Shown here one piece after another: positions 26,901 through 43,765 of a DNA stretch of 51,930 nucleotides; positions within the stretch are counted from its first letter, which is position 1, and every line of letters begins with the position of its first letter. The DNA comes from an uncultured bacterium (lineage in GTDB: Bacteria; Planctomycetota; UBA8108; UBA1146). The notes below the pieces were generated by a model. It made no database searches. It was not told the origin of the DNA and worked only from the letters and a program-made list of their open reading frames with translations. The translations under genes and the position numbers were made by a program. Location: NCBI GenBank assembly GCA_937876125.1, contig CALEHF010000226.1:1-51930 (forward strand), written 5' to 3'.

Positions 26901-27396
26901 TGGTGGCGGTCTGGTGACTCATCGTCACCCAGAACTCGCCCACGTCCGATCCGATACCAGGGCGCTCGATGATCGAACAGATTCCCTGCCCCACGCGAGT
27001 CTCGCCGAGAAACGCGAGATCGGGGCCGAGGAAGACCACCCGGCCGTCGGCATCATTCGCGACCGCGATGATCCGGCTGTCCGCCGTGATCGCGATCGGT
27101 TTCACTTGTTGTGTTTCGAGGTTCACCAGCTCCCCACGCACTTGGTCGTACTTGTAGGGGGGAGCCTCGAATGCGCCGAACTGGTTGGCGCGTGGCTGGT
27201 TCGGAAATGGTTGGATCGGACCCGGGCCGGGGGTCGGACCGGGAACCACGATCTGCGCACTGATTCCCGCGGCCCTCGGCGCGACCCAAGGAACGAGCGC
27301 GACCGCCGCGATGGCGATGGCGATGGCGAGGAGTCGGGCGGAATGGAGGAGACGCAGTCGAGACGGAACATGGGATCGACGGAAGAACCTGCGCAT
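23977..27396 (-). CDS. large secreted fusion protein: beta-propeller + di-haem cytochrome c peroxidase-like region (2 CxxCH) + thrombospondin type-3 Ca-binding repeats + Ig-like C-terminal domains
   Basis: Start placed at ATG 27396 (MRRFFRRSHVPSRLRLLHSARLLAIAIAIAAVALV signal anchor). NCASCHPEARKDGLGW and RCNVCHLLPTG haem motifs. DRDRDGVRDGDELTQGLDPQNPDTDGDGLWDGYDP. Confidence 0.75.
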   Translation of the reverse strand: MRRFFRRSHVPSRLRLLHSARLLAIAIAIAAVALVPWVAPRAAGISAQIVVPGPTPGPGPIQPFPNQPRANQFGAFEAPPYKYDQVRGELVNLETQQVKPIAITADSRIIAVANDADGRVVFLGPDLAFLGETRVGQGICSIIERPGIGSDVGEFWVTMSHQTATIVISRTTFRITDVIRPAIPNGQVGAGHASTPMGIDFNQEVFTDADGTFVPIGARAYIAAKHTNSLIVVDANLKSVLEVIELTAMHNASIAHLNEPRSVTYFQGSIYVSSHLSGNQTTPSQSVNPGSPGLPLGFDNVDIIDLNNDPNRSLPDYDVAELELSTGQITMISGLYTVGFGMMGHQHSGRIAVGSFRSRNGEFTGEGAFPAGSVVQNGVGIFRVNNPAQTTGFFVAEDLGPQAEDLVLPIDLTDDALGRIYVAAYGNSRVGVVQPTGAYFGSIDTDDGPAGVAIARGGKRLYVYCRIEGTVQVFDIASIVSPPSAPLASFDLFDPTFVNVKEGRRIFNTPNSGNGATNCASCHPEARKDGLGWQLSKFFDVAPGPATEFKDLKGVMVTQDLRNLWGTAPYHWRGEQPDIESFNGAFVNLLKGSLLSPGDMDLMKSYIFSCYYPPNPLQQMSRVFSAEGKDGFLQFITDPVRCNVCHLLPTGTDCSITEAILGSTSPRSVESAQLIGAWSKESDIINTDNISLPTDEFPLAPMTGFGMQHEGVLNDISQFNRFFFAAKTDLPALTQFVHELDSGLSPFSSFCRMWTQANATAVGRIVNYMIPQATAMNGDLVATGRIRPSGVWIDVGLLYDPSITAFRADTTSLGTFTFAALKTLVQNGDAELFLYGVPYWSGERIALDRDRDGVRDGDELTQGLDPQNPDTDGDGLWDGYDPQPLNPSIGVLSVNAPIVIPSSFEVVFENTSNIKFAYSTNQLSPSRIEFGETPALGTFSGDPLLPTFAANDSNLWKTKHMAFIRPQLSQGVEELNDGTMYHFAIWTQGQNGVTLVTPGTMLVAALPQTVTDIQTPNRRVGSIVLTSTDNGNGTFTYDATVQLVMNNGSPTGTPCLAGRFAIYDSNGFFTTTASSAQTAANGIATFSITTSVGEQVTGDRVCFDLPMVIDTINCNGTLATLTFPGQWSPGPSSLETTAP

Positions 27397-27568
27397 GGGC
27401 CACCCTCTCGGCGAAACGAGGAGTCCTCGGGGCGGACATCGCCCCGACGGATGCTCCAAACCGACAGCCGACGCTCTCCGGATGTGGGAGAACGCGGTCG
27501 CTCGGTTCGAAGCGTGGGAGCCCATGGCCTGCGCAGGGTTGCTCTGGTTGTTCTGAACAGGCCTCCAA

Positions 27569-28570: not shown

Positions 28571-28863
28571 GCGGGAGCCTCCGGTTGATCCTGTCCAACG
28601 CCGAGCCGTTCGCCCCCAAACCTACGACGAGGGGCGATTCAGCGACAGTGTCTCTTCGCGCGAGCGGTGAGATTGCGGCGAAGAGTGAGCGTCTCGGGAG
28701 CGAAAAAGTCGTGAAAGTGGCGCGATCTCGCCGGCCGGAGATGCCCTAAACTCCTGCAGCTAATGTGCTTACAGACAAGTTCGCGGGTTCGCGACGACTC
28801 TTTGATGCCGGCCGCGCATCCCCTTACGATCGCCGGTCACCCAAAACCGGACCGGGAGCCGTC

Positions 28864-30177
28864 GTGACGATCGATTCCACTGCCATCGAGTCCATCCGAG
28901 CGATCGCGGAGGGCGCGACCGAGAGCGATCTCGTCCGTTACCGCGGGATCCGGACGTGGACCGAACATATCGTGAGCCCTCTCGCGGTCGAGGACACCGT
29001 CGTCCAAACGATGCCGGATGTCAGCCCGACCAAGTGGCACCTCGCCCATACGAGTTGGTTCTTCGAGACCTTCCTCCTCACCCCGCACCTCACTGGCTAC
29101 CGATCTCCCCAGCCGATTTTCGAGTCCCTCTTCAATTCCTACTACAACTCGGTCGGCGCACAGTTCTCCCGCCCAGAGCGCGGCCTGCTCTCGCGCCCGA
29201 CCCTCGCCGAGGTTCTTGAGTACCGGCGGGTGATCGATGTTGGCATCGCGCAGCTCATCGAGCGGGGGCTCCTCGACAACTCCGCTTGTCGGGCAATCTT
29301 CGAGTTGGGGATGCGGCACGAGCAACAGCACCAAGAGTTGATGGTCACAGACCTGAAACATGTGCTCTCGCAGAATCTCGTCGAGCCGATTTACCGGGAG
29401 CGCGCTGACGCGCCGAACTCACTCGTATCTCCGTTGGAATGGATCGCGTTCCCCGAACAGGTGTGCGAGATCGGCTTCGACAAGAGTGGTGACGCCGAGG
29501 AGAGCCCGTTCTCGTTCGACAACGAGGGGCCGCGCCACCGCGTCCTGGTCGGCGATTTCGAGTTGGCGACACGCCCGGTCACCGCCGGGGAGTACCTCGC
29601 CTTTATCGACGATGGCGGCTACCGCACTCATTCCCTGTGGCTGTCCGAAGGGTGGGCGCGAGTGCGCGACCTCGGGTGGCAGGCTCCCCTCTACTGGCGC
29701 GAAGACGACGGCGCATGGACGCAGTTCACACTTTCGGGTCGTCGGCCGATCGATCGGTCGGAGCCCGTCACCCATCTCAGCTACTTCGAAGCGGATGCGT
29801 TCGCTCGCTGGGCGGGGGCGCGGCTCCCGACCGAGTTCGAGTGGGAAGTCGCGGCGGAAGACGTTCCTGTCGAGGGACGGTTCGCCGAGTCGAACCGCTT
29901 CCACCCCGGCCCCGCCCCCGCGGGCGCTCCCGGCCTCACCCAAATGTATGGCGATGTTTGGCAGTGGACCCAAAGTGCCTACGGACCCTATCCGGGCTAT
30001 GCGCCGGCGGAGGGCGCCTTGGGCGAATACAACGGTAAATTCATGAGCGGGCAGATGGTCCTTCGCGGCGGATCGATCGCGACCCCCGCTGGGCATGTAC
30101 GCCCCACGTACAGGAACTTCTGGCACCCCCCGACTCGATTCCAGTTCTCGGGCGTGCGTCTGGCGAGGAAACGATGA
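28864..30177 (+). CDS. egtB: ergothioneine biosynthesis sulfoxide synthase EgtB (DinB_2 + FGE-sulfatase domains)
   Basis: WHLAHTSWFFE, RHEQQHQELM, and the C-terminal FGE-like GDVWQWT...RGGS...YRNF. Start placed at GTG 28864 (GGGAG upstream). The ORF-track start 28765 has no RBS. Confidence 0.88.
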   Translation: MTIDSTAIESIRAIAEGATESDLVRYRGIRTWTEHIVSPLAVEDTVVQTMPDVSPTKWHLAHTSWFFETFLLTPHLTGYRSPQPIFESLFNSYYNSVGAQFSRPERGLLSRPTLAEVLEYRRVIDVGIAQLIERGLLDNSACRAIFELGMRHEQQHQELMVTDLKHVLSQNLVEPIYRERADAPNSLVSPLEWIAFPEQVCEIGFDKSGDAEESPFSFDNEGPRHRVLVGDFELATRPVTAGEYLAFIDDGGYRTHSLWLSEGWARVRDLGWQAPLYWREDDGAWTQFTLSGRRPIDRSEPVTHLSYFEADAFARWAGARLPTEFEWEVAAEDVPVEGRFAESNRFHPGPAPAGAPGLTQMYGDVWQWTQSAYGPYPGYAPAEGALGEYNGKFMSGQMVLRGGSIATPAGHVRPTYRNFWHPPTRFQFSGVRLARKR

Positions 30178-31142
30178 GTCGACGAGAAGTTGAACTACTC
30201 GAGCACCGTTCCCACCTGCGCACTCAGCTGGAAGAGGTCGCGATCGGCCTGACCCAAACCGATCAAAAGACACTGCCCTGCAAGTGGTTCTACGACGAGC
30301 TCGGATCGCAGTTGTTCGATCGGATCTGCACTCTCGATGCGTACTACCCGACGCGCACCGAGCACCGGATCCTCGAAGACTCCGCCGAGGCGATGGCGCG
30401 CATGTGCGGTCCGGAGTGTGCGATCATCGAGTACGGCGCTGGCAGCGTCGTGAAGGTGCGATTTCTCCTCGATGCGCTCGAAGAGCCAGTCGCTGTGGTA
30501 CCGATCGATATCTCAGGAAGTCACGTCGCCGCCGCAGCCGCGGAGCTCGCCGCCGATTACCCCGCAATCGAGGTGCTCCCGGTTTGCGCAGATTACACTC
30601 GACACGTTCCTCTTCCCCCGATGCGACGCGAGGCGCGGCGAAAGGTCGCGTTCTTCCCTGGCTCGACGATCGGCAACTTTCATAGGGACGCCGCGATCGA
30701 GTTCTTGTCGCGCATCGCTCAGACGGTCGGTGAGCACGGCGCGCTCATCATCGGCGTCGATCGCAAGAAAGACGCGGCGATCCTCGAACTCGCGTACAAC
30801 GATCCCGAAGGGATCACGGCGGAGTTCAACCGCAATCTGCTCCGTCACCTCAACCGCGAACTCGGGACCGACTTCGATCTCGACCGATTTACCCATCGCG
30901 CCGTGTACTCAGAAGCGAGGGGGCGCATCGAGATGCACCTCGAGAGCGAGTCCGATCAGACCGTGATGGTGGGGGAGACTCCGGTCGAGCTGACCTCTGG
31001 CGAGACGATCCGGACCGAGTGCAGCTACAAGTACTCGTCGTCTGAGTTCCGAGTGCTCGCCCGCGAGGCGGGGTTCCGCTGTCGCGCCGAATGGACCGAC
31101 GAGGATCGTCTGTTCGGGGTGTACCTGCTCGAAGTGGCGTAG
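30174..31142 (+). CDS. egtD: L-histidine N-alpha-methyltransferase EgtD
   Basis: KWFYDELGSQLFDRICTLDAYYPTRTEHRIL and the SAM-methyltransferase core EYGAGS. ATGA overlap with egtB. Confidence 0.9.
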   Translation: MSRREVELLEHRSHLRTQLEEVAIGLTQTDQKTLPCKWFYDELGSQLFDRICTLDAYYPTRTEHRILEDSAEAMARMCGPECAIIEYGAGSVVKVRFLLDALEEPVAVVPIDISGSHVAAAAAELAADYPAIEVLPVCADYTRHVPLPPMRREARRKVAFFPGSTIGNFHRDAAIEFLSRIAQTVGEHGALIIGVDRKKDAAILELAYNDPEGITAEFNRNLLRHLNRELGTDFDLDRFTHRAVYSEARGRIEMHLESESDQTVMVGETPVELTSGETIRTECSYKYSSSEFRVLAREAGFRCRAEWTDEDRLFGVYLLEVA

Positions 31143-31451
31143 GAGCCGAGAAGGACCAATTCCCCGGCGGGGATCTGGAGGTCGGGCCCTGGAACCGCGG
31201 GGACCGGAGACCCCGGAAATCGCAATTCGACCCCGTGGAACGCAAGCGGGGGGGCTGGTGGGGTGGGGAGAGAAGTCTTGTCGCTTGAGCCTACCCAGGA
31301 TGACACCCCGGGGTTTACCGATCTCCAGAGAGCCCCGAAACCGTCCTCGACCTCCCGGGGTTCGATCGGGTGCAGTGGCTCGGGAGAGACTCCTCTCCCC
31401 GGCCGCACTTCCGGACACCTCCGCGAGCGTCCCCCCCGAAAGGATCGCATT

Positions 31452-32459
31452 GTGAAATCGAACTTGCTGCGCAACCTCGCCCTGACGTTCACCACGGCGG
31501 CGGTCTTCACCGTCGCCGAGCCGGTTTCGGCCCAGACGCCCGCACCGGCCCCGAAGCCCACCCCGGAGAAGAAAGATGACCCCGCTCCGGCCCCGAGCCG
31601 TGGTCAGCGGATGCTCGAGCGCATGGATGAGGACGGGGACGGCAAGATTGCCATCAGTGAGCTCCCCGAGTTCATGGCGGAGCGGATGAAGGGCGCCGAC
31701 ACCGACGGCGATGGCTTCATTACCGCGGCTGAGATCGATGCGATGCCGCAGCCCGAAGGGGGTCGCGGGGGCCGCGGCGGTCGCGGCGGTCGCGGCGGCG
31801 ACGGTGAAGACGGCGGTCGCGGCGGAGATCGCCGTCGGGGCGGACGCGTCGACAACACCCCGGAGCAAATGCTCGCACGCCTCGATGCCAACAAAGACGG
31901 CAAGATCGCCAAGGACGAAGTTCCCGAGCGGATGGCGGAGCGCCTGATGGCGGGGGACCTCGACAAGGACGGTTTCCTCACCCTCGCCGAGCTGAAGAAG
32001 GCGGATCAGACCCGTCGCGAGGAGAACGCGAAGCGCACCATGGAGCGCTTCGACAAGAACAAGGACGGCAAGATCACGACCGATGAGCTCCCCGAGCGCG
32101 GTCGCGAGCGCATGGCGCGCCTCGACACCGACAAAGATGGCGTGATCACCCTCAAAGAGCTCACCGCGCCGCCGCCGGCTCCCCCGGCAGAGGGCACGGG
32201 ACGCGGTGCGGGACAGGGTGGCAGGGGACCGGATGGCATGGGACTGGGTGGCGATGCGCGCGGTGGAGCCCAGGTGCTCGAGCGCCGCGACGCCAACAAA
32301 GATGGCAAGCTCACCGGCGACGAGATCCCTGGTTGGATGCAGCGCCGCATGGAGACGCTCGACAAGAACAAGGACGGCGCGCTGACTGCCGATGAGCTCG
32401 GTGGCGGGAGCACGGAGAAGCCGCCGGCTCCGCCGAAGAAGGGGTCGGTCGATCTGTAA
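31452..32459 (+). CDS. secreted EF-hand repeat protein (8 EF-hand loops) with an RGG-rich linker
   Basis: Start placed at GTG 31452 (VKSNLLRNLALTFTTAAVFTVAEPVSA signal peptide). Loops DEDGDGKIAISE, DTDGDGFITAAE, DANKDGKIAKDE, DLDKDGFLTLAE, DKNKDGKITTDE, DTDKDGVITLKE, DANKDGKLTGDE, DKNKDGALTADE. Confidence 0.8.
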   Translation: MKSNLLRNLALTFTTAAVFTVAEPVSAQTPAPAPKPTPEKKDDPAPAPSRGQRMLERMDEDGDGKIAISELPEFMAERMKGADTDGDGFITAAEIDAMPQPEGGRGGRGGRGGRGGDGEDGGRGGDRRRGGRVDNTPEQMLARLDANKDGKIAKDEVPERMAERLMAGDLDKDGFLTLAELKKADQTRREENAKRTMERFDKNKDGKITTDELPERGRERMARLDTDKDGVITLKELTAPPPAPPAEGTGRGAGQGGRGPDGMGLGGDARGGAQVLERRDANKDGKLTGDEIPGWMQRRMETLDKNKDGALTADELGGGSTEKPPAPPKKGSVDL

Positions 32460-32550: not shown

Positions 32551-33488
32551 TGTTCACCCTGAGGCACTCAAGGGCAGTGCCGCTCTGACTGGCCGACGGA
32601 GCAGTCCGGAACAGCTGCGCGACAAAGAGATGGAGCGATGAAGAGAGGGCGAAGGTCCCGCCGACCTTCGCCCCCGGAATAGAGTGAGCAGGCTGGCAGA
32701 GGGCCCGGGCTGAGGGGACCGATCTGCGTCGCTCGGGCGCGCAGCGGGGAGCAGAGAGCACCCTCAGGGGCTCCCGACTCCTTCCGACTGTCGCGCTTTC
32801 GCAAAAGCGCTGGGCTGTGAGGGCCTCTTCTCGTTCCGCCGGCGGGACGGAGCTCAAAGAGGAAGAGTCACAGAAAGAGGAGGCACCCGGGTCGAGGTCC
32901 CGCCGATCCAAATTGGAGCTGCGAGTCGAGGGGCTCTCTCGATCTCGGCCGGGCGCCTCATGTGGGTTGACGTCCGCAGTTTGCGCCCGGAGGTGGGAAT
33001 TCCCCCCCGATCGCTCCGCGATGACCTGTTGCTGACGAGGGGTTGGTGTCGGCCGGGGATCGGGCGGTTTCGGAAAAGCTCCTTCTCGGCGGAAAGAGTT
33101 CGGGGTGGCGTCGGGAGCTACGAGGGGGGAGACTGGCCGGTTGACGACGATCACCAGTTCTATGGCCAGGACGTGCGGATCTTACGACCGTGCTCCATGA
33201 CTTGTGCGCTGTCGGCGTATCAATAGCGGCCGAGGAAGGGCTCTCCGAGGTCAATGGGTACTCTTGTCGAGAAGTGTCTCAGGCAGCTCGTTCTTGCTCC
33301 TTACGGACGCGCGGGCTTGACGACGCGGTTCTCCGACAAAGAGATCGCAACTCTTGAAACTCGGCTGGTAATCTCGACACCAACCTCAGGTCGAGATCCC
33401 GCACGGTCTCGGCTCCGTGACTCCCCGTCGGAGACTCGGTATGAACCGTTTCTGCCCGCCGACACCACTCGCGTAGGAGGTGATCTTC

Positions 33489-35381
33489 ATGATCTCCCGG
33501 CCCCTTCACACGAATCGCGCTCGTCTTTGGTTGGTTGTTCTCACTGTGGCGATCTCCGGCATCTGTGGCGGGAATCTGATCGCCCAACAAGCGGGCCCCA
33601 CCCCCAATCCGATCACCCCCGGCGGTGGCGGAGGAGGTACCGGTGAGTGGCCCGTGCCCCCGGTCCTCGAGCTGATCGTCGACGGGAGTTTTTCCGAATT
33701 CGGCGCGCCGACGACTCTCGGGTCCTCCGCGAAACAGATCCTCCATGGCAACTTCACGGATGATGCGGAGCTCGACGTCGTGCTCTTCGACGGCACGATC
33801 GCCAAGCTGATCTCCGGAATCGATGTCTTTACCGTCGGTTGGTCTTCGACCGTCACTGCGCGCGGAGTCGCGGCCGAGCGGCAAGCGAACGGGCAGGATA
33901 CGCTGATCGGGACGACCGACCTCGGACTCGTCCGGTTCACCTTCGAGTCGGACGCCTCTGTCACGGAACAGCCGCTCGGCTTCATGACCTGGCTGAACGC
34001 GACCCACTTGAGAATCGCCAACGTCGGGGGCGCAGAAGCGGAGTTGGATCTGATCGGGATTTCTCCGACTGGCGACGTTCTGGTTCTGCTCGATTATGAC
34101 AGTGCGACCCCCGTCGATACCTCATTCACTTCGACACACCCAGCCTTCGACTTGCTGACTCTCGATTGGGATGGAGTGGGGCCCGCCGAAATCGCCCTTT
34201 TGACTGACGACGGCCTTCGGGTCCACGCAGGAAGCGGGAGTCTCCTCTACGATGCGAGGTCCTTCCATCCCCAGGGGGTCTTCGCGAGCGCACCCCTGCC
34301 GACAGGCGCCGACGGCATCGCGTGGGTCACTCCGACCCCCAATGGCCTGCTGGAGCTCCTCGTGCTCGTGGGGAACGGCTTCGCCCCCATCGTCAAAGTC
34401 TTCCCCACCGTGACCACCGGTGCGATCGCCATGGCTGATCTCAACGATGACGGATGGCCCGAAATCGCACTGCGCCAGGGTGTGAACGGTGACCTTCTGC
34501 TCTTGAAGGGCACCCAAGGCGGCTACCTTCCCGATGACCCTGAGTACGCGCAAGTGATCGAAGGTGTCGCGGGTGACGGCAACTCCGGAACGCCGCACTT
34601 CCTCGACCTGGAAGGCGATGGCGATCTCGACTTGCTGTGGAACCTTGCGCAAGGGACCCGCATGCGAGCGATCCGCTCGGGCGTGTTCGACAGCGGAGCG
34701 CAAGCACCCGACGTGGTCTGGAAGTTTGGGGACTTCGAGAACAACGGCATCCCCTACTTCCGCTTCATCTTCGTCAACGGGGAACAGCACTCCGACGACT
34801 ATCCGCACCTGCAAGCGTGTTTGATCCGGAAAGCCGATCCGGCGACTCCCGCCGATGCGACAGTGCTGCAAGTGAAGACTCTTCCGTTTGCGGACACGCT
34901 TCCGCCGCCGCCGCTGCTCCCGGGCAACTACGCGCCGTTCACGATGAGCCACGCGATGCCCACCGGGCCGTTGGCGCCAGGGGAGCTGATTCCGGAAGAC
35001 TTCTACGGAGGGGTCGAAGAGACGTCCCCGTACCCACACTGGCAGTTCGATATTCCCGAGACGGGACTCGAGTTCGATGCGATCTACATTCTGGTTCTGC
35101 GCTACGTCAGCCTCGATGCGCAGGGCATCGTCGACTCGGCGGGCCCCTCGAGGGTTTACTACTTCACTCCGGAGCAGTTCGACGATATCGGCACGGGAGG
35201 AAGCCTCGACTACATCCTCAATCTCGCGACCTGGACCGTACTGCTTCCGACGGTCGAGCACGTCGTGCCCCCCGTCGGAACCGAACTCGAGTTGTCGAGT
35301 TCCGGAACGTACGGCGGTGAGAAGCCGGGCACGGGCACGGACGAGGACGCGAAGCCGGACTTCGGCACGTCTGGACCCTGA
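33489..35381 (+). CDS. secreted FG-GAP-like repeat protein, otherwise hypothetical
   Basis: AGGAGG is 8 nt before ATG 33489. Signal anchor RARLWLVVLTVAISGICGG. Loops ADLNDDGWPEIAL and LDLEGDGDLDLLW. C-terminal half not recognised. Confidence 0.6.
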   Translation: MISRPLHTNRARLWLVVLTVAISGICGGNLIAQQAGPTPNPITPGGGGGGTGEWPVPPVLELIVDGSFSEFGAPTTLGSSAKQILHGNFTDDAELDVVLFDGTIAKLISGIDVFTVGWSSTVTARGVAAERQANGQDTLIGTTDLGLVRFTFESDASVTEQPLGFMTWLNATHLRIANVGGAEAELDLIGISPTGDVLVLLDYDSATPVDTSFTSTHPAFDLLTLDWDGVGPAEIALLTDDGLRVHAGSGSLLYDARSFHPQGVFASAPLPTGADGIAWVTPTPNGLLELLVLVGNGFAPIVKVFPTVTTGAIAMADLNDDGWPEIALRQGVNGDLLLLKGTQGGYLPDDPEYAQVIEGVAGDGNSGTPHFLDLEGDGDLDLLWNLAQGTRMRAIRSGVFDSGAQAPDVVWKFGDFENNGIPYFRFIFVNGEQHSDDYPHLQACLIRKADPATPADATVLQVKTLPFADTLPPPPLLPGNYAPFTMSHAMPTGPLAPGELIPEDFYGGVEETSPYPHWQFDIPETGLEFDAIYILVLRYVSLDAQGIVDSAGPSRVYYFTPEQFDDIGTGGSLDYILNLATWTVLLPTVEHVVPPVGTELELSSSGTYGGEKPGTGTDEDAKPDFGTSGP

Positions 35382-35483: not shown

Positions 35484-38243
35484 TTACGCCTCGGCGGGGA
35501 CTCTGCGGGGCTTCCGAAGGAATCGAGACGCGATCCACAGAAGGAGCAGTACTCCTCCCACCCAGGTGTAGCTCGGCACGCCAACTGTGGCGGCGCCGGG
35601 ATTCCCTCTGGCGATCACCGGGTGGTGGCCGAGGCCGAAGACGATCAACGATGACCGGTGTGCGGGGTCGAGTTCCGCTCCAGCAATATGGAGGGCGCGG
35701 AGCGCTGCCGCGGGCGTGGCTCCCCGGGCGATCTCTTCGTGAAGGATCGTCGACGCGTCGAGGGTCGCGCGATACGACAGGTCCCCGAGCGACACGACCA
35801 CTGCGTCCGCTCCACTGCGCAGGAACGAACCGACGAGATCTGCCGACCCCGGGTCCCCCAGCCGCGGCGCCCCGGCGCCGCTCCCGCACGCGGTCGCGAG
35901 CACGCAGGGGGGAGCGGAGAGCCCTTCGATCAGGTTGCTGCCGATCACCCCCGGATCCCCGGCGAAGAGGAGAGCCGTGTTCCCGAGATTCTCGGAATCA
36001 CGAGCTCCGTGCAGGAGGACCTGAAGGACGGCGGTCTCGGCTGTAATGCTCCTCTTCGTCTCCGCCCACGTGGCCAGTGGACCGATCCGCACGGAACTCT
36101 TCTTGTAGGCTGCGACTCTCGCGCGCGCCTCGCTCTCGCTCATTGTGATAGCGCTCGCTTGGGGGAAGCGACTTTCAGTCAGAGGAGCGAGGGTCGGGGC
36201 GGCGATGAAGACTGCGTGCTCTCGGGTCAGGGCCCCGCGCGCCGCGCGCCGGTCAGCGAGGAACAGCCCCACCGACAACGACGGAAGGATCGAGATCGGG
36301 GTGCGAGAGCCGAGGGTCTTGCCATCGGAAAAGCGCAGCTCGGAGACGGGGAAGTTTCTGAGGAGGTCGAGTCCTACGAGGGTCAGAGTGTCCCACGAGG
36401 CGATGCGATCCTGAACTTCATCGGGCAGCAGGAGAGCGGAGAATGCGCGACTGAGAGCCGCATGCTTTTCGAGGCGTGTCTCGCTGGGAACGGTTCCCGC
36501 CGGCGGCACTCGACTGTGGAATGAGTTGAAAGCCTTTCGCGCGCGCTCGATGGCATCGCGAGAAGGCAGTCGATGGTGCGTGATCTTCTTGCCATCGACC
36601 AGGACGACATGAGTCCGGTCAGAGGCGGGGAGGTAGAGCGCGATGCCTCCGTTTCCACCGAGCGCTCCATCGGCACCGAGCAATCTGGCGCGGACCGCGG
36701 CCAGAGTCGGCTCAGGGGCATCGAACTCGCGGTGCAGCTCTCCGAGGGTTCCGAGGTCGGCGAGAATCTCGTAGGCGGGGCGGCCACTCTCTGAGTCATC
36801 GCGTGATTCTCCCGCGATCGCGAGCGCGGTCTCGATCCGTTCGGAGTGGAGGAGCCGAACGCGTTCGTAGTGAAGGATTCCGGAGCCGGAACGCTCGTCC
36901 TCGGGCGAGACGTACAGCGACGCGCGGACCTCGTCCCAAGCGGCATCGAGGAGAGCCTTCGCCTCACCGAACGACTCGGGACCGTTCTCGCGCAAGATGC
37001 GGGCGCGACTCGCCGCAGAGTAGGCGCGTTCGAGTTCGACGGGGGGGGAAGGCAGTGCATCGAGCGCCTCGGCGGCTCCTCGCCAGTCTCCCAGGTTGGT
37101 CCTTTGGTGGGCGAGTCGGAGCAGGCACGCCTGGCGTATCGCGGGGGGGGTCGTTTGTTCAGCGACCAGGCTCTCGAAGATCACGTGAGATGCGATGTCG
37201 AACTTCGCACCGAGTGGCTCCTCGGCCATGCGTGCGATGCCGCGATGAAGTTCGAGCTCCGCGATGAAGACGGGCGCCTTCTCCGTGAGCTCGGGGATCG
37301 CCAAAGTCTCGTCGATGAGCCGCTCGAGGAATGCCGCCCGATCGGTCGCGAGATACAGCATCAGGCGGTGGAGGATCGAACGCCGCCTCGAGAGGAGATG
37401 ACTCTGGAGCTCGAAGCCCAGCTTGTCCGAGAACTGCTGCTCGTCGTCGAACGCCGCGGCGGCGACCTCGATCCGCCCCAGCTCGAGCGCGTAGAGTCCG
37501 CGGAGACCGGCGGCAGTGGCTCGATCGAGATCGTCCTTGGCGGCGGCGGCTCCGAGGATCGCTGCCTCGGCGCGAGTCCAGTGCCGCTTGCGGATCTCGA
37601 TCACTCCGATCGCGCGCTGCACATCGGTGACGAGATCGCTTTCGCCGAGGTCGGCGAGGGTGAGTTCGACGTGGGCGCGGGCCGCCTCGAGATCACGGGC
37701 GGCGATTTCTGGGATCAGGCCGATCCGCGCGGTCGCTCGATTGCGCGCCCCTTTCTTCTCGTCGCCCATGTGGTCGCAGGCCTCGATCGCCAGCCTCCAC
37801 GCACGCTCGCTCTCGGATGAGTTCTGGGATGAGCGGGCGAGCCGCGAGGCACCCTCCCAGACACTCCAGGCGTAAATGGGATGCTCCGCGAGGCGGGGAC
37901 GGTAGGTCTCGAGTCGCTCCCGGACCGCGTCCCACTGCCCAGTCTCTGCGAAGTCTCTGACCTCGTAGTAGAGACTGATCGGAGGTTCTGTCGTCGTCGG
38001 AACCTGGGTCGGAGGATCCTGGGCTTCACTCGAGGAGATCCCGGCCGAGATGAGGGCAGCAACAGTGAAGAGAATGAGGGCGAAGGACCGCTGGGCGCCT
38101 CCTAGTTGGCTTCGGCCCGCCTCACTTGGACGCGCTCGGAATGCTCGAGCTCTTCGCCCATGGCTGACAACGACACGACGTTCCAATCGAACTCCCGCCA
38201 CGGGATCTCTACGGTGGGGGTCCACGACGTTCCCCGGATCCAC
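35484..38243 (-). CDS. TPR-like + CHAT (caspase-like) protease domain protein with signal peptide and C-terminal TM helix. Coordinates are the maximal ORF; real coding appears to begin near 38100.
   Basis: CHAT His/Cys dyad context (VLQVLLHGARD ... PCVLATACGSGAG). Long helical repeat region. C-terminal WVGGVLLLLWIASRFLRKPRR. Codon position-3 composition of 38105-38243 fits the anti-sigma frame, not this frame. Confidence 0.75.
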   Translation of the reverse strand: MDPGNVVDPHRRDPVAGVRLERRVVVSHGRRARAFRARPSEAGRSQLGGAQRSFALILFTVAALISAGISSSEAQDPPTQVPTTTEPPISLYYEVRDFAETGQWDAVRERLETYRPRLAEHPIYAWSVWEGASRLARSSQNSSESERAWRLAIEACDHMGDEKKGARNRATARIGLIPEIAARDLEAARAHVELTLADLGESDLVTDVQRAIGVIEIRKRHWTRAEAAILGAAAAKDDLDRATAAGLRGLYALELGRIEVAAAAFDDEQQFSDKLGFELQSHLLSRRRSILHRLMLYLATDRAAFLERLIDETLAIPELTEKAPVFIAELELHRGIARMAEEPLGAKFDIASHVIFESLVAEQTTPPAIRQACLLRLAHQRTNLGDWRGAAEALDALPSPPVELERAYSAASRARILRENGPESFGEAKALLDAAWDEVRASLYVSPEDERSGSGILHYERVRLLHSERIETALAIAGESRDDSESGRPAYEILADLGTLGELHREFDAPEPTLAAVRARLLGADGALGGNGGIALYLPASDRTHVVLVDGKKITHHRLPSRDAIERARKAFNSFHSRVPPAGTVPSETRLEKHAALSRAFSALLLPDEVQDRIASWDTLTLVGLDLLRNFPVSELRFSDGKTLGSRTPISILPSLSVGLFLADRRAARGALTREHAVFIAAPTLAPLTESRFPQASAITMSESEARARVAAYKKSSVRIGPLATWAETKRSITAETAVLQVLLHGARDSENLGNTALLFAGDPGVIGSNLIEGLSAPPCVLATACGSGAGAPRLGDPGSADLVGSFLRSGADAVVVSLGDLSYRATLDASTILHEEIARGATPAAALRALHIAGAELDPAHRSSLIVFGLGHHPVIARGNPGAATVGVPSYTWVGGVLLLLWIASRFLRKPRRVPAEA

Positions 38244-38839
38244 CCCTCCACCATAATCGGTTCTGCGTCGAGATCAGAGTCTGCGGCGAAGATCCGGACC
38301 GTGAAGCTCCCGCCGGCTGGCCGGGTGCCGGTCCAACTGAACTCAAGGATCTCGGAGACGGTGCCGGCGGGCGAGAGGTCAACCAGGCCGTCCGTGCCGA
38401 GGATGCGATCCTCCGGGTCCGGGTTGTTCGAATCGCTGCCGAGCTCACCGACGATGAAGACCGCGGCTGCCAGACAGAGCACAACGATCGCGGCGGCGAG
38501 GGGGCGGGCCAGTCGATGGCGACGCGCTTCGAGAGAGAGCGGCCTCCGCGCTCTGGAGGGGTCAGCGCCTGCCTGATCTTGAAGGGCCCGATCTCGGAGG
38601 ATGCGATCGACATCGGCGAGGCCGGGAGCGTCGCCGACCTCCCGAGCTGCTGCCAAATCTCGACGCTCCTGCTCGGCGACCGCGTCGAGGCTTCGCGCGA
38701 CTCCCTCGAGCTCCTCGAGCCGCGTGCGGCAATCGGCGCAGGAACTGAGGAGTTCGACCATCTCGGGGGCATCTTTGGTCAGGTCGCCAACCAAGAGACT
38801 CATGAGCAACGACTCGTGGTGCGGGTCGTGCGCGTTCAT
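38102..38839 (-). CDS. single-pass anti-sigma factor (N-terminal CxxC anti-sigma domain, TM, periplasmic C-terminal domain)
   Basis: Start placed at ATG 38839, overlapping the sigma stop (ATGA). LLSSCADCRTRLEEL, TM LAAAIVVLCLAAAVFIV. Position directly downstream of the ECF sigma gene. Confidence 0.65.
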   Translation of the reverse strand: MNAHDPHHESLLMSLLVGDLTKDAPEMVELLSSCADCRTRLEELEGVARSLDAVAEQERRDLAAAREVGDAPGLADVDRILRDRALQDQAGADPSRARRPLSLEARRHRLARPLAAAIVVLCLAAAVFIVGELGSDSNNPDPEDRILGTDGLVDLSPAGTVSEILEFSWTGTRPAGGSFTVRIFAADSDLDAEPIMVEGWIRGTSWTPTVEIPWREFDWNVVSLSAMGEELEHSERVQVRRAEAN

Positions 38840-39441
38840 TCCATCCCCTCTCCGAGGGAGCGCAGACGCTGCCGCAGCCACTCGAGGCCGCGGTAGTAGT
38901 GCGTCTTTGCAGTGTTTGTCGGGATTCCCAAGAGACTGCCGATCTCGGGGAACGTCCGCTCCTCGAAGTGCTTGAGGCGGATCACCTCTGAGCCGGGGGG
39001 GCCGAGTTCGCTGAGCCCAATTTCGATCGCTTCGTGCTCTATCGCCAACGAAACCTCCGCCGCGGGTAGCTCTTCGAAAATTAGCGCGGACGCGCCGGGG
39101 CCGATTTCTCTTCCGCGATAGACCCGCCGGAAGCAGTTCCGGGATTCGAGCCAACAAAACCGGTACGTCCAGGTTTCTAGTGTCGCCCGCCCCTCGAATG
39201 TTTTCAGTTTTTCCCAGATGAGGACCAGGACGTCCTGGCTGAGGTCGGCGAGATCGGCAGGGGTGAGGACGCGCCCGGCCCGCTCGTTGAGGGTGTGAAG
39301 GATCCGTGGAACGCACTCGAGGCGCTTGATGAGGGCGTCGAGTGCGGCGGAGTCCCCGGCGAGGACAGCCTCCACGAGCGCGAGATCGGCGCGGTGAGCG
39401 CGCGCGCGCTCCTCCGCGTCGTCGCGAAGAGTCTCAGTCAT
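38836..39441 (-). CDS. ECF (group IV) sigma-70 family RNA polymerase sigma factor
   Basis: 201 aa. Region 2 (DVLVLIWEKLKTFEGRATLETWTYRF) and region 4 HTH (RLKHFEERTFPEIGSLLGIPTNTAKTHYYRGLEWLRQ). Confidence 0.9.
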   Translation of the reverse strand: MTETLRDDAEERARAHRADLALVEAVLAGDSAALDALIKRLECVPRILHTLNERAGRVLTPADLADLSQDVLVLIWEKLKTFEGRATLETWTYRFCWLESRNCFRRVYRGREIGPGASALIFEELPAAEVSLAIEHEAIEIGLSELGPPGSEVIRLKHFEERTFPEIGSLLGIPTNTAKTHYYRGLEWLRQRLRSLGEGME

Positions 39442-39731: not shown

Positions 39732-41654
39732 ATGGTCCGCAGCTCAGTACTCATCCTTCCCTGCCTTCTAGGCCTCATCGCCACCTTTCTTCCCACAGGA
39801 CTCCTCGCACAGGTCACAGGTGTCGTTCGCGATGCCGGCTCGAACGCCCCGATCGAGGGTGCCCTCGTCTCGGTCCAAGCGACTGGAGTCCGAGTTCTGA
39901 CCGCCAGTGACGGCAGCTATCTGATCCCCGGCATCGCGGGCGAGGTGGTGATCGTCGCGGCGGTGCCCGGCGCCTACCACGCATCTCAAACCGTGCTCGC
40001 GCCGGCCACGGCAGTCGACCTCTCGGTGGAGATGGTGCCGATCGAAAGTGACCCCGCGTACGTTTGGCTCGGTCCCGACGATTGTGGGACGTGCCACCCC
40101 GATCAGTACGCCGAGTGGAACGGGTCCCCGATGCAGAAAGCGGGACTGAACACCTGGGTGTATGACATCTACGATGGCAGCGGCACTCCGGGGGGCCTGG
40201 GTGGCTTCGTTTACGAACGCGACTCCGTGTTCGCTGCGAGCAATCCGCATTCGGAGTGCGCCGCCTGTCACCAACCCGAGCCTTGGGTCGAGCAATCCCC
40301 CATCCCCCTGCAACCTCTGGACGTAGTCACCGACGGGATGGCGCACGGAGTCTCGTGCGAGGTGTGTCACAAGCTCGCAGCCGTGGACGCATCGAAGATC
40401 AACTTCCCCGGCATCGTTCCCGAATCGACCACGTTCATCCGCCCCTCGGGGGGAGCGCAAGTGGAGTTCGGAGTGCTTGGCGATTCGAACTTCGAGTTCC
40501 CGGGATTGATGCGCCCTGCGTTCAATCCCCAGTTGGTAGCGGAGGTGTGCGGAACCTGCCACCAGGACAAGAACGACCCCGACGAGGATGGCGACTTCGA
40601 AGAGGCGAACGGGGTGATCTCGGAGCCGACCTATCTCGAGTGGGTCGTTTCACCCTACGGCGACATCAACTCCCCTCTCTATCAAAGCTGTGTCGATTGC
40701 CACATGCCTCCTTCGGGGGCGGACCAGGTGAGCGTCTTTCTGTTCCCGCCGCTCCTGCGCGATCCGGCGACGATCCGGTCCCACGAGGTCCGTGGAACCA
40801 CGCCCCAATTCCTCGAGAACGCCGTCACCCTGGAGATCGCGACCGCAGTGGTCGGAAACGAACTCGTGGCCAGCGTGTCGATCACCAATGACCAGACGGG
40901 GCATCACGTTCCGACCGGAGTGACGATCCGAAACATGATCTTGGTAGTTGAGGCGACCAGGGTCGATGACGGCGCTCTCCTGCTCCACACCGGAACAGAA
41001 ACGGTGCACGCGCTCGGTGGAGTGGGGAGTCCGAGCCAAGGCTACTACGCGGGCCTTCCCGGAAAGCTGTTCGGGAAGGTGAACATTGCGGCGAGCGGGC
41101 AAAGCCCGACTTTCTTCACCGATGCCGTCTCGATCGTCTTCGACAATCGCATTCCGGCGCTCGAAACCGATACGACCTCGTACCCCTTCTTGCTGCCGAG
41201 TGGTGGCGGAACGCTGGAGGTCACGGCGCGGCTGATCTATCGCCGCTCCTGGCGGGCGCTGACCGATGCGAAAGGGTGGACCACGGATGGCCACGGCAAT
41301 CCCCTCGCCGACGTGCAAGGTCCTTACTTCGGTCATCTGATGGAGGAGAAGGCTTCGTCGATCGTTCTCCCATTCACCACGCCTGAATTCCGCCGCGGTG
41401 ATGCGAACGGCGATGCGGCGGTGGACCTCGCCGACGCGGTCTCCGTTCTCGAGTATCTCTTCATCGACGGAGATGCTCCGTTGTGCTTCGAAGCGGCGGA
41501 CGGGAACGACGATGCGATTCTCGATCTCGCCGACCCGATCCGAGTGTTGATGTACCTGTTCGGAGGCACGCCCCTGTCGGCGCCAGGAGCACTGGCGTGT
41601 GGACCCGATGCCGCGGGCTCCTTCAGCTCTTGCGCTTACTCCGGGTGTCCCTGA
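39732..41654 (+). CDS. secreted pentahaem c-type cytochrome (CarboxypepD_reg-like N-domain, multihaem core) with C-terminal dockerin-like 4-Cys module
   Basis: Signal peptide. Five CxxCH motifs (CGTCH, CAACH, CEVCH, CGTCH, CVDCH). Tail FRRGDANGDAAVDLADAVSVLEYLF...AADGNDDAILDLADPIRVLMYLF...CGPDAAGSFSSCAYSGCP. Confidence 0.85.
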   Translation: MVRSSVLILPCLLGLIATFLPTGLLAQVTGVVRDAGSNAPIEGALVSVQATGVRVLTASDGSYLIPGIAGEVVIVAAVPGAYHASQTVLAPATAVDLSVEMVPIESDPAYVWLGPDDCGTCHPDQYAEWNGSPMQKAGLNTWVYDIYDGSGTPGGLGGFVYERDSVFAASNPHSECAACHQPEPWVEQSPIPLQPLDVVTDGMAHGVSCEVCHKLAAVDASKINFPGIVPESTTFIRPSGGAQVEFGVLGDSNFEFPGLMRPAFNPQLVAEVCGTCHQDKNDPDEDGDFEEANGVISEPTYLEWVVSPYGDINSPLYQSCVDCHMPPSGADQVSVFLFPPLLRDPATIRSHEVRGTTPQFLENAVTLEIATAVVGNELVASVSITNDQTGHHVPTGVTIRNMILVVEATRVDDGALLLHTGTETVHALGGVGSPSQGYYAGLPGKLFGKVNIAASGQSPTFFTDAVSIVFDNRIPALETDTTSYPFLLPSGGGTLEVTARLIYRRSWRALTDAKGWTTDGHGNPLADVQGPYFGHLMEEKASSIVLPFTTPEFRRGDANGDAAVDLADAVSVLEYLFIDGDAPLCFEAADGNDDAILDLADPIRVLMYLFGGTPLSAPGALACGPDAAGSFSSCAYSGCP

Positions 41655-43765
41655 TGGGCTCCCGGCGCGAGCCGGACGCACCGCATGTGACCGTGGACCA
41701 TTCCGGCCCGCGGGTCGTGCCCCAGCCGCGACGCCCAGTCACGGGGCCGCCGCGGCCGGGGGGGCCCGCCCGGTGGCGCGCGGGGACGCTCGCGAGCGTG
41801 TACATCCTGATGGCGATCCACATCGTGCATTGGAAAGTCGCCGGAAAGACGCTCGCTCCCCTCGAACTGAACGAGGTGATGCACACCCTCGAACTCGGTG
41901 TGGTGACCGCCGGGTTCATCTTCATGAGCGTGGCGCTGCTTTCGGTCGTCATCTTCGGGCGGTTCTTCTGCTCGTGGGGATGCCACATTCTCGCCCTTGA
42001 AGATCTCTGCGCGTGGATCATGGCGAAGCTCCACATTCGACCGCGCCCGTTGCGATCACGACTGCTCCTCTGGGTCCCGCCGATAGCCTTCTCCTACATG
42101 TTCATCTGGCCACAACTCGCGCGGTGGGCCGTGCGGACTTGGCCGTCGGTCGAGAGCGTGGTCGGCGCGCGCCCCGAGTTCGTGCTCCGGATCGCAAAAG
42201 ACGGTGAGGGGTGGGCAAGCTTCGTCACCAGCGACTACTGGCGCAATCTCCCCAGCTGGCCGATCGCGGCGCTCACCTTCGCGGTGTGCGGTTTCGTGAT
42301 CGTCTACCTGCTCGGCTCACGTTCCTTCTGCCACTACGGCTGCCCCTACGGCGTCGTCTTCGCGCTCGCCGATCGAGTCGCGCCCGGCAAGATCAAGTTA
42401 AAGGGCACTTGCGTCCAGTGTGCGCAGTGCACCGCGGCATGCTCTTCGGGAATCGCCGTGCACAAGGAGATCGCAAAGTTCGGCCGCGTGGTGAGCCCTT
42501 CCTGCTTGAAGGATCTCGACTGTGTTCACAGTTGTCCTGAAGAAGCGATCGGGTTTGGATTCACGCGCCCGGGTGGAGTCGCATCACTCGGCAAGAATCG
42601 GGTGCGGAAACGCTTTGATTTCACTTTGCGCGAAGAGCTTCTGATGGCGCTCATGGTCATCTTGACGCTGCCGGTCTATCGAGGGCTCTACGATCGAATT
42701 CCGTTCCTTCTCACTCTCGCGCTCGGTGCGATTCACGGGTACTTGGCCGTGATGGCGGTACGCCTGCTCAAGAAGCAACGACTGAGCCTACGTGGCACCA
42801 CACTCAAGCGCGATGGGCAGCTGACAGTCGCCGGTGGCTTCTTCGCGGGCATCCTGATCGCGGTGGGGGCGCTCTTCTGTCACAGCGGGGCAATTCGGGC
42901 GAGCGAGCACCTCGGCGAGTCTGCGTTCGCACAGGCGCGGAGCCACTGGCTGCGCGGAGCAGAGGCGCCCGATCCGTTGGTCGATCGCGCGCGTCGTCAC
43001 CTCGAACGACGCCAGAACTGGGGGATGATCGACAGCATGCCCCTCGAGCGCATGATCGCGGAGCTCGAGAGGCACCGAGGAGAAGTCGAAAGCGCCGAGG
43101 TGCGGCTCGGGAAGATCCTTCGGGTGAACCCCGCTGACTGGGACACACGCCTGCAGCTCGGGCGGTCCTTCGCTCTTCGAGGCGCCCACGACGAGGCTCG
43201 TCACGCTCTCGAACCGATCGTGCGCAAGGGCTCCGAAAGCGGCCATGCTCGGGGCGAGGCGCGTCGCCTGCTCGCTTCGATGCACCTGGTCGAAACGGAT
43301 AGCTCGGCGGCAGAAGCGGAGCTCTTGCTCTCGATCGAAGAGTCTCCGGACGAAGTGCTGAGCCATGCTGCGCTCGCCGAACTTTGGGCAAAGCGGGGAG
43401 AATTGGTGCGGGCAGAAGCTGTTCTCCGCGAAGCGATCGTCGCTGCGCCCCAGTGGCCTGAAGCGCATCGTCGGCTCGGCCTGGTGCTTCTCGCCCGTGG
43501 CGTCGTGCCCGAGGCTCTCGCCGCATTGCGCGGAGCCATCGATCGTGCGCCCCTCGACCCGGGGCTCGAGGTCGATCTCGGTCGTGCGCTCGCAGGAACC
43601 GGTGATTTGTCGGGGGCGGAGCGCTCCTTCCGCCGAGCACTCGAGCACGACCCTGAGTTTCTCCTCGCTCACTTCTGCCTCGGGCACCTGCTCACTGATC
43701 TTGGCCGGGCCGACGAAGCGCGGCCTTACCTGCACGCGGTGAATGCGTCGCAGCCGGTTCCATAA
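41654..43765 (+). CDS. NapH/MauN-like membrane polyferredoxin (4Fe-4S) fused to a C-terminal TPR domain
   Basis: Start placed at ATG 41654, overlapping the cytochrome stop (TGATG). RFFCSWGCH, CHYGCPYG, CVQCAQCTAACSSG, CLKDLDCVHSCPEEAI. C-terminal TPR-like helices. Confidence 0.75.
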   Translation: MGSRREPDAPHVTVDHSGPRVVPQPRRPVTGPPRPGGPARWRAGTLASVYILMAIHIVHWKVAGKTLAPLELNEVMHTLELGVVTAGFIFMSVALLSVVIFGRFFCSWGCHILALEDLCAWIMAKLHIRPRPLRSRLLLWVPPIAFSYMFIWPQLARWAVRTWPSVESVVGARPEFVLRIAKDGEGWASFVTSDYWRNLPSWPIAALTFAVCGFVIVYLLGSRSFCHYGCPYGVVFALADRVAPGKIKLKGTCVQCAQCTAACSSGIAVHKEIAKFGRVVSPSCLKDLDCVHSCPEEAIGFGFTRPGGVASLGKNRVRKRFDFTLREELLMALMVILTLPVYRGLYDRIPFLLTLALGAIHGYLAVMAVRLLKKQRLSLRGTTLKRDGQLTVAGGFFAGILIAVGALFCHSGAIRASEHLGESAFAQARSHWLRGAEAPDPLVDRARRHLERRQNWGMIDSMPLERMIAELERHRGEVESAEVRLGKILRVNPADWDTRLQLGRSFALRGAHDEARHALEPIVRKGSESGHARGEARRLLASMHLVETDSSAAEAELLLSIEESPDEVLSHAALAELWAKRGELVRAEAVLREAIVAAPQWPEAHRRLGLVLLARGVVPEALAALRGAIDRAPLDPGLEVDLGRALAGTGDLSGAERSFRRALEHDPEFLLAHFCLGHLLTDLGRADEARPYLHAVNASQPVP

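Follow-up and report, generated by a model that had tools for sequence, protein, structure and literature searches.

How does a caspase-like protease come to be encoded together with a sigma factor of the extracytoplasmic function (ECF) type and its inhibitor, and might it act on that inhibitor? The question is raised by a locus in an uncultured planctomycete (contig CALEHF010000226.1, assembly GCA_937876125.1), of which we analysed a stretch of 51,930 nucleotides (nt), hereafter the window. Here, genes for an ECF sigma factor, a single-pass anti-sigma factor and an exported TPR-CHAT protein lie together on the minus strand, and a convergent gene encodes a secreted FG-GAP beta-propeller (Table 1). 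We find that these four genes constitute a conserved and probably planctomycetal module, which we read as one for envelope signalling. Moreover, we propose, with a probability of roughly 0.4 and by analogy with the Myxococcus protein DdvA, that the four genes are a split DdvA-like module: the CHAT protein would act in trans as the site-1 protease on the anti-sigma factor, and the TPR solenoid or the propeller would serve as the sensor. What triggers anti-sigma factors with unusual periplasmic domains is an open question, and a module of this kind would bear on it.

A conserved gene order

Gene neighbourhoods were sampled in two independent ways, via relatives of the CHAT protein and via the sigma factor. 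An exhaustive HMMER search of 1.84 billion representatives returned 7766 matches to the CHAT family at E<=1e-3, and 850 representatives remain at E<=1e-30. Of these 850, the 150 with the best scores are mostly 750-950 amino acids long and match near end to end. Fifteen loci were sampled by way of the CHAT protein (the window, L001, L002, L004-L009, L011-L013 and L093-L095). In 14 of them a sigma gene is followed on the same strand by a gene for a protein of ~190-255 amino acids without a Pfam match and then by the CHAT gene, with the genes abutting or overlapping; the exception, L093, has neither sigma nor anti-sigma gene. The sigma-sampled set, which came from a metagenome scan with a motif of the clade, comprises 79 loci, 24 of them with at least 2 kb of downstream DNA. 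Both anti-sigma and CHAT genes are present in 21/24, and the remaining three (L042, L078 and L087), which lack both partners, have the lowest clade-profile scores. Three out-group ECF sigma factors are likewise accompanied by neither. Anti-sigma homologues are recognisable 3′ of the sigma gene in every triad locus, and a member of the anti-sigma family is always followed by a CHAT gene where there is enough downstream DNA (one CHAT gene being apparently fragmented and one anti-sigma factor having been missed by the profile). Dozens of independent contigs show this order of genes. Judged by this synteny, the triad is a genuine conserved system and not a chance adjacency, and the conservation across genomes on which the earlier note on this DNA had staked its reading of the locus is borne out by both samples.

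The same note had described three co-directional, tightly packed genes, the first two being a sigma and an anti-sigma gene that overlap by ATGA. The layout is as described, with all three genes on the minus strand and overlapping. Both assignments hold as well, that of the sigma factor through matches to TIGR02937 and Pfam and that of the anti-sigma factor through its position, the overlap and a transmembrane (TM) segment. Since the anti-sigma and CHAT genes overlap or abut, here and in the related loci, coupled synthesis of the two proteins is suggested. As a three-gene unit, the locus had been described incompletely: the order of the triad is conserved, but a fourth conserved gene, that of the convergent FG-GAP propeller, had been overlooked. 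The convergent CHAT and FG-GAP genes are separated by a near-perfect, terminator-like inverted repeat without a T tract, which is probably a bidirectional terminator.

A homologue of the FG-GAP gene is adjacent to the CHAT gene, usually in the same convergent position, in 13/13 of the CHAT-sampled loci with downstream DNA and in 13/14 of the sigma-sampled loci with enough DNA. In L012 the gene lies upstream and on the same strand instead; L001 contains a C-terminal fragment only, and the match in L002 is weak. The linkage between CHAT and propeller is at least as tight as that between CHAT and anti-sigma factor. FG-GAP_3 matches all eight aligned homologues (best E 1.6e-10), in keeping with FG-GAP repeats that carry Ca-binding DxDxDG loops; the window copy taken alone scores 25.3 bits, slightly under the cut-off of 26.9. 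Weak matches in the PDB are to YesX/YesW and to integrin alpha. The FG-GAP proteins of the window (35330-35381), L001, L004 and L006 share an acidic D-(E/D)-x-K-P-(D/E)-F just before their C-terminal end, and such a peptide could be read by a TPR domain.

Table 1. Features of the sigma/anti-sigma/CHAT/FG-GAP locus, in coordinates of the window.
Feature	Position	Strand	Basis
ECF (group IV) sigma factor, 201 aa	38836..39441	-	TIGR02937 and Pfam matches
ATGA shared by sigma stop codon and anti-sigma ATG	38836..38839	-	read from sequence
Single-pass anti-sigma factor, 245 aa	38102..38839	-	position, TM segment, weak family matches
Predicted cytoplasmic anti-sigma domain, residues 1-95, motifs H..HE.LL and C..C (CADC 38740-38729)	38555..38839	-	42-sequence alignment
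Predicted anti-sigma TM helix, residues 113-131	38447..38503	-	mean hydropathy 2.7 over 19 residues
Predicted extracytoplasmic C-terminal domain of anti-sigma factor, residues 135-245, ~110 aa	38105..38437	-	alignments
TAGGAGG including anti-sigma stop TAG (38104-38102)	38098..38104	-	read from sequence
Exported membrane-anchored TPR-CHAT protein (predicted), 900 aa from candidate TTG 38186	35484..38186	-	PF12770, AlphaFold2 model
Residues 1-62 of CHAT protein, disordered except signal-peptide helix			AlphaFold2 model
Signal-peptide hydrophobic core FALILFTVAALISAGISSS, then SSSEA/QDPP	38028..38084	-	hydropathy
All-alpha TPR-like solenoid, residues 71-503	36678..37976	-	AlphaFold2 model, Foldseek TPR matches
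Alpha/beta CHAT caspase-like domain, residues 513-851	35634..36650	-	PF12770, model, Foldseek
Catalytic His726 (LLHGARD)	36011-36009	-	invariant in alignment
Catalytic Cys767 (ATACGSG)	35888-35886	-	invariant in alignment
C-terminal TM helix, residues 873-890 (35570-35517), and basic tail RKPRRVPAEA	35487..35570	-	hydropathy, model
Inverted repeat, 22-nt arms, 95% complementary, 3-nt loop	35409..35455		between convergent CHAT/FG-GAP stop codons
Secreted FG-GAP beta-propeller, 633 aa, convergent with CHAT	33480..35381	+	FG-GAP_3, synteny

Named relatives of the CHAT protein are annotated as 'CHAT domain-containing protein [Planctomycetota bacterium]', and three genome matches are to metagenome-assembled genomes (MAGs) of Planctomycetota/Planctomycetia. 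These three MAG loci came from a scan of genome contigs with a 5-sequence CHAT alignment; a 3-sequence alignment found none. A word-indexed protein search returned three proteins only for the CHAT query, mostly generic TPR-CHAT proteins for the 57-sequence profile and nothing besides the query itself for the anti-sigma factor.

Some loci depart from the common pattern. In L093 (3710-10540), a relative of lower GC content (54%), the CHAT gene encodes P0062, of 959 amino acids and with both signal peptide and anchor. Two FG-GAP-like genes come after it in convergent orientation, and a divergent gene for a 429-aa secreted protein lies upstream of it. L002, a distant relative, contains an extra gene of unknown family (229 aa, 8067-8756) right before the sigma gene; a single nt separates its stop from the sigma start, so that the operon there may have four genes. 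L074 (7317-9348) has a CHAT gene broken up over at least three frames, with the sigma, anti-sigma and FG-GAP genes remaining; the copy would be decaying, or else the assembly would be in error.

The CHAT protein

We number the residues of the CHAT protein from TTG 38186. It matches PF12770 with 66.9 bits, the cut-off being 24. An AlphaFold2 model built from a 57-sequence alignment (mean local confidence, pLDDT, 87.9; global confidence, pTM, 0.84) has a caspase/separase-type fold following a TPR-like solenoid, and Foldseek matches this arrangement to DdvA, separase and Csx29 (E 1e-9 to 1e-12). Pfam TPR models gave no match to the single protein sequence; consensus TPR proteins are, however, picked up with the family profile (E 4.5e-11). 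The catalytic residues, His726 and Cys767, are invariant in 57/57 family members of the alignment, and the protein is on these grounds likely to be an active protease.

A signal-peptide-like N-terminus is seen in nearly all of the 12 CHAT open reading frames (ORFs) examined once these are extended, L007 being ambiguous. Ten of the first 12 loci and ~82/144 representatives have, near the C-terminus, a TM segment followed by an Arg-rich tail. The proteins of L011 and L013 and those of about a third of the representatives end right after the CHAT domain (...VVGLGHxPVF), without an anchor and with the signal peptide kept, and would be soluble periplasmic forms. When curated hidden Markov models (HMMs) of C-terminal sorting signals (PEP-CTERM, MYXO-CTERM, GlyGly-CTERM, LPXTG and others) were searched, the tail of the window protein had no match at E<=10, and the tail of P0003 had sub-threshold matches alone, to the TM-Arg part of several models. 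The window tail is therefore read as a plain membrane anchor. Export by the twin-arginine route was considered for these proteins, given their Arg-rich N-regions, but rejected, as no consistent RR-x-F-L-K stands beside the hydrophobic core across loci.

The signal peptide together with the C-terminal TM segment and basic tail places the bulk of the CHAT protein, by prediction, outside the cytoplasmic membrane, where the C-terminal domain of the anti-sigma factor is also predicted to lie. This is the compartment that had been predicted earlier, and the export signals and anchor behind the prediction are conserved in relatives. The other features listed at that time (signal peptide, helical-repeat region, His/Cys dyad, C-terminal TM segment followed by RKPRR) are all present, and there is no sign that the dyad is degenerate: both residues are intact.

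The start of the CHAT gene

The earlier note also read TAGGAGG, in which the anti-sigma stop codon is embedded, as lying directly ahead of the CHAT signal peptide. Part of this stands: the stop codon is embedded there and the signal-peptide core FALILFTVAALISAGISSS begins 14 nt past TAGGAGG. However, the CHAT frame has no ATG, GTG or TTG between TAGGAGG and the core. The first start codon in frame after TAGGAGG is ATG 37769, at which the public gene call P0001 (761 aa) begins, and a start there would drop the signal peptide and ~70 residues, a stretch over which the homologue P0002 is 60% identical. As TAGGAGG has no start codon after it until 37769, which cuts this conserved region, the reading frame indicates that the CHAT start must lie upstream, inside the anti-sigma gene, a non-canonical start being the alternative. 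The CHAT ORF is open from GTG 38243 to its end at 35484, and candidate starts are TTG 38186, with GGGAG 5 nt upstream, and GTG 38201, 38225 and 38243. TAGGAGG is probably not the ribosome-binding site of the CHAT gene, since no in-frame start codon lies between it and 37769.

In L004, L005, L006, L011 and L013 a signal-peptide-like segment is likewise visible only when the ORF is extended 5′ of the database call, and the extended CHAT ORFs in these relatives usually overlap the 3′ end of the anti-sigma gene. Public gene calls for these proteins would thus often begin at an internal Met and lack the signal peptide, the true CHAT start being placed within the anti-sigma gene. A systematic annotation error is thereby exposed, by which the signal peptide has been lost here and in at least two related loci.

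The sigma and anti-sigma factors

The sigma factor scores 55.4 bits against TIGR02937 (cut-off 42.9) and 34.8 bits against Sigma70_r4_2 (cut-off 25.7); its match to the r2 model, at 22.2 bits, is slightly under the cut-off of 24, and r4 is also matched. An alignment of 12 sequences was made for these sigma factors. With a clade profile, the CHAT-linked sigma factors score 100-386 bits and other ECF sigma factors 45-69 bits, an unrelated ECF sigma factor in L011 scoring 45 bits. By these scores the sigma factors encoded beside CHAT genes form a distinct clade of their own. A scan for sigma-70 consensus promoters found no match, and a GAAAC...CGAC motif 5′ of three FG-GAP genes is at chance level.

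For the anti-sigma factor, no Pfam family was matched, and the matches elsewhere are weak (NCBIfam 'antisigma', E 0.009; RslA of Mycobacterium tuberculosis, 3hug_B, E 0.25, residues 3-63). A putative helical domain of ~90 amino acids encoded right after the sigma gene is, in position and overlap, what would be expected of a class I or zinc-associated anti-sigma (ZAS) domain, with weak family matches. Residues 1-95 are predicted to be helical at low confidence (single-sequence model, pLDDT 56). The canonical H-x3-C-x2-C zinc motif is absent, as LLSSCADC provides CxxC without a His four residues earlier; conserved His residues are near the N-terminus instead (H..HE). Moreover, the CxxC pair is missing in 4/12 homologues. 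The TM threshold is passed by 11/12 of the anti-sigma factors examined, the hydrophobic stretch of L012 being slightly under it, and in each a ~100-aa outside domain follows. This domain carries the signature P.G.V..FRW..LP.GG.F.V.V...WTP..E..WP..IRWEV.A.DA.G in both the 12- and the 42-sequence alignments and matches no known family. Six beta strands are predicted in it at low confidence, and it appears to be small and beta-rich. A P-x-E-P-D motif in the linker was apparent in 12 sequences and was rejected when it was lost in 42.

Proposed mechanism and alternatives

Two described systems guide our reading. In DdvA of Myxococcus, one chain begins with a zinc anti-sigma domain and continues through a TM helix and a linker to a periplasmic TPR-CHAT part; its authors propose that CHAT, as the site-1 protease, would cut this linker in trans inside a dimer and so allow RseP to act (PMC11506125). 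According to the same authors, DdvA is the only characterised anti-sigma factor with a TPR-CHAT part, and they found relatives only in Myxococcota and one Comamonas (PMC11506125). In the type III-E craspase, the TPR-CHAT protein Csx29 cleaves Csx30, an inhibitor of the ECF-type CASP-sigma (PMC10028731). The fusion of a TPR-CHAT fold to an anti-sigma factor in DdvA is an argument of the Rosetta-stone type for a direct functional link between the separate proteins found here. Taken together with the synteny and gene overlap, the compartment and membrane that the two proteins are predicted to share, the invariance of the dyad and the craspase precedent, it leads us to favour, tentatively, the split DdvA-like module. 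In the resting state the anti-sigma factor would hold the sigma factor at the membrane. The TPR solenoid would read a periplasmic cue, possibly by way of the FG-GAP propeller, whereupon the His/Cys site of CHAT would be activated and would cut the extracytoplasmic part of the anti-sigma factor in trans. An RseP-type site-2 protease and cytoplasmic proteases would then release the sigma factor. Control would in that case run from the protease to the anti-sigma factor.

Several observations weigh against this proposal. CHAT-mediated cleavage in DdvA is itself still a hypothesis in the source paper (PMC11506125), and the likeness to DdvA is structural only: identity is 14% and hmmsearch of the PDB with the CHAT family gave no match to DdvA or to any other solved CHAT protein. 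No conserved linear cleavage-site motif was found in the juxtamembrane linker of 42 anti-sigma factors. The membrane anchor is missing in two of the first 12 loci and in a subgroup of the family. L093 keeps the CHAT and FG-GAP genes without sigma or anti-sigma gene, which implies a role of the protease that does not need the anti-sigma factor. Furthermore, the FG-GAP gene is transcribed convergently as a unit of its own, which suits a sigma-dependent target as well as a sensor. Lastly, no shared ECF-type promoter was detected upstream of the sigma and FG-GAP genes, where enumeration of two-block motifs did not exceed shuffled controls, itself a weak negative.

Some of these points favour the main alternative, in which CHAT and FG-GAP are products under the control of the sigma factor and not its regulators. 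The operon and the convergent FG-GAP gene, the latter from a sigma-dependent promoter of its own, would be induced while the anti-sigma factor senses an envelope cue by other means, and the tethered CHAT protein would process or mature FG-GAP or other envelope proteins. The pairing of CHAT with FG-GAP, being tighter than that with sigma (13/13 loci) and persisting in L093, speaks for such an arrangement. So does the observation that autoregulated ECF operons often carry targets; the paper on ECF classification cautions that conserved neighbours may be either regulators or targets (PMC7826278), and a clade-specific anti-sigma factor is expected in any ECF group, so that its co-occurrence with CHAT alone is no proof of interaction. 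Even so, we hold this reading to be somewhat unlikely. The common promoter motif that it predicts for the sigma and FG-GAP upstream regions is what the enumeration failed to find, with the weakness stated above, and this reading leaves unexplained why the closest relative by structure has its TPR-CHAT part fused to an anti-sigma factor, why the CHAT gene overlaps the anti-sigma gene and why the protease is usually tethered to the membrane of the anti-sigma factor.

It is also conceivable, though improbable in our view, that the TPR-CHAT protein makes no cut at all and, as a shield or co-sensor, binds the small outside domain of the anti-sigma factor and, in the manner of the bulky periplasmic domain of DdvA, sterically protects it from RseP or from some other site-1 protease. 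The shield would be removed by a ligand (possibly the FG-GAP protein or a competing CHAT substrate) or by self-cleavage of CHAT, and intramembrane proteolysis would follow. DdvA without its TPR-CHAT part becomes RseP-sensitive, and dyad mutations have no effect in unperturbed cells (PMC11506125). An outside domain of ~110 amino acids only would need a bulky partner to block RseP, and the two proteins are predicted to share compartment and membrane tether. The invariant His/Cys pair argues that catalysis matters, though self-cleavage would satisfy this, and L093 has no anti-sigma factor to be shielded. A further idea, that the module senses phage in the periplasm and switches on antiviral genes like DdvA/DdvS or craspase, draws on the fact that both characterised links of TPR-CHAT to ECF sigma factors are antiviral (PMC11506125, PMC10028731) and that DdvA is the best structural match. 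We regard it as very improbable because no defence genes are seen nearby: the PADLOC defence models have no match among the four proteins, and the neighbours in the window and the related loci are housekeeping and envelope genes (LeuRS, ThyA/DHFR, EgtB/EgtD, cytochromes and GlnA), with no CRISPR, cyclic oligonucleotide-based antiphage signalling system (CBASS) or other defence genes seen. Moreover, the conserved partner is an FG-GAP propeller and not a defence gene.

The split DdvA-like module can be stated in a bolder form, in which CHAT would be a dedicated in-trans site-1 protease, gated by the integrin-like FG-GAP propeller as ligand sensor, in a widespread and hitherto undescribed four-gene module. 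We consider this form doubtful as it stands. What gives the split reading its interest is that DdvA, the one TPR-CHAT anti-sigma factor studied, has yet to yield proof of cutting by CHAT, in part since it combines protease and substrate in a single chain and responds to a signal still to be identified. Here, protease and presumed substrate are separate gene products, so that a simple in-trans cleavage test of the idea is possible. If the proposal is true, the locus offers a tractable two-protein form of a mechanism that is so far hypothesised for DdvA. Moreover, the integrin-like propeller is indicated as a possible partner or substrate of the CHAT protease, the locus adds a periplasmic, non-defence setting for bacterial caspase-like proteases, and the family comprises 850 representative clusters (E<=1e-30) that are annotated only as 'CHAT domain-containing protein'.

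Surroundings of the locus

The window is otherwise ordinary chromosome, with genes for LeuRS, ThyA/DHFR, EgtB/EgtD, an ABC-F protein, MoxR, cytochromes and many FG-GAP, lectin and EF-hand proteins. Two plus-strand genes diverge from the sigma gene: one encodes a multihaem cytochrome with an N-terminal CarboxypepD_reg domain (39732-41654) and the other a membrane protein with 4Fe-4S and TPR domains (41483-43765). As the genes 5′ of sigma differ in other loci, these do not seem, on comparison of the loci, to belong to the module. Carboxypeptidase-type and 4Fe-4S neighbours are mentioned in the literature on ECF54 sigma factors.

At 28765-31142 (+), an EgtB-like gene with an FGE-sulfatase domain stands before an EgtD-like gene for a histidine methyltransferase, and the pair is likely to serve ergothioneine biosynthesis. 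A 1182-aa ORF at 23977-27525 (-) has a strong coding signal (G+C content at third codon positions, GC3, 0.80) and no Pfam match. Secreted repeat proteins are encoded at 31263-32459 (+; EF-hand/dockerin-like), 8002-11415 (+; TPR and FG-GAP), 21339-22778 (-; FG-GAP) and 13016-14356 (+; legume-lectin), in keeping with a planctomycete-like cell-surface repertoire.

Comparison with known systems

The earlier note knew of no characterised mechanism of this kind. That claim cannot be kept, given DdvA (PMC11506125), Csx29/Csx30 (PMC10028731) and the CHAT genes near ECF54 (PMC8999054), and since DdvA and craspase exist the novelty of the locus is reduced. Our literature search found no paper on a split sigma/anti-sigma/CHAT/FG-GAP module, ECF Hub group descriptions being outside that search.

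The best PDB match of the CHAT model in Foldseek is the TPR-CHAT part of DdvA (8rot_A), with E 2.6e-12 and a TM-score of 0.49 in both directions over 860 columns at 14% identity. It is followed by human separase (7nj1_A; E 2.3e-11, query-normalised TM-score 0.26) and by the craspase TPR-CHAT protein Csx29 (8d9g_A and 8eey_B; E 3.6e-11 to 7.8e-11, query-normalised TM-score 0.35).

With DdvA the module shares an ECF sigma factor with a single-pass anti-sigma factor, and a periplasmic TPR solenoid joined to a His/Cys CHAT domain, the periplasmic location being predicted here from the signal-peptide core and the C-terminal TM segment with basic tail. In contrast to DdvA, anti-sigma factor and TPR-CHAT are separate polypeptides in the window and in all related loci, and no fused, DdvA-like members, with an anti-sigma domain or internal TM segment, were found among the best 150 representatives. 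The CHAT protein has its own signal peptide and C-terminal anchor where DdvA has an N-terminal TM helix, and the anti-sigma factor has a small beta-rich outside domain of its own. Moreover, there is a conserved FG-GAP partner, no CBASS or CRISPR genes are near, and the family is large, its named members being planctomycetal. In DdvA itself the CHAT part has no three-helix motif and its active site is turned toward the dimer interface.

Craspase resembles the module in coupling a TPR-CHAT protease to an ECF-type sigma factor and its inhibitor, and Csx29 is a strong structural match. However, craspase is cytoplasmic, is activated through the RNA-guided Cas7-11 (gRAMP) and belongs to a CRISPR locus, whereas the proteins described here carry export signals and an anchor and no cas genes are present. 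Classical regulated intramembrane proteolysis, as in DegS/RseA/RseP of E. coli and PrsW/RsiW/RasP of B. subtilis, also has a single-pass anti-sigma factor with a cytoplasmic domain that binds the sigma factor, and a tethered extracytoplasmic site-1 enzyme, as the candidate here would be (PMC10028731, PMC11506125). It differs in that the site-1 candidate of our locus is a cysteine protease of the caspase fold, equipped with a TPR sensor, and not a serine protease or metalloprotease; the candidate shares an operon with its presumed substrate, and no site-2 protease gene was seen in the window. Finally, ECF54 sigma factors have CHAT, carboxypeptidase and subtilase genes nearby, have been proposed to be under proteolytic control, and are described as actinobacterial and without an anti-sigma factor (PMC8999054, PMC7826278). 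The conserved genomic association of an ECF sigma factor with a CHAT-domain protein is common to both, whereas here a dedicated anti-sigma factor is present wherever sigma and CHAT co-occur, and the named relatives are planctomycetal. What remains new in the module described here is its division into two polypeptides, the anchor at the C-terminal end of the protease, a nearly always present FG-GAP partner, a setting outside defence and a family of this size.

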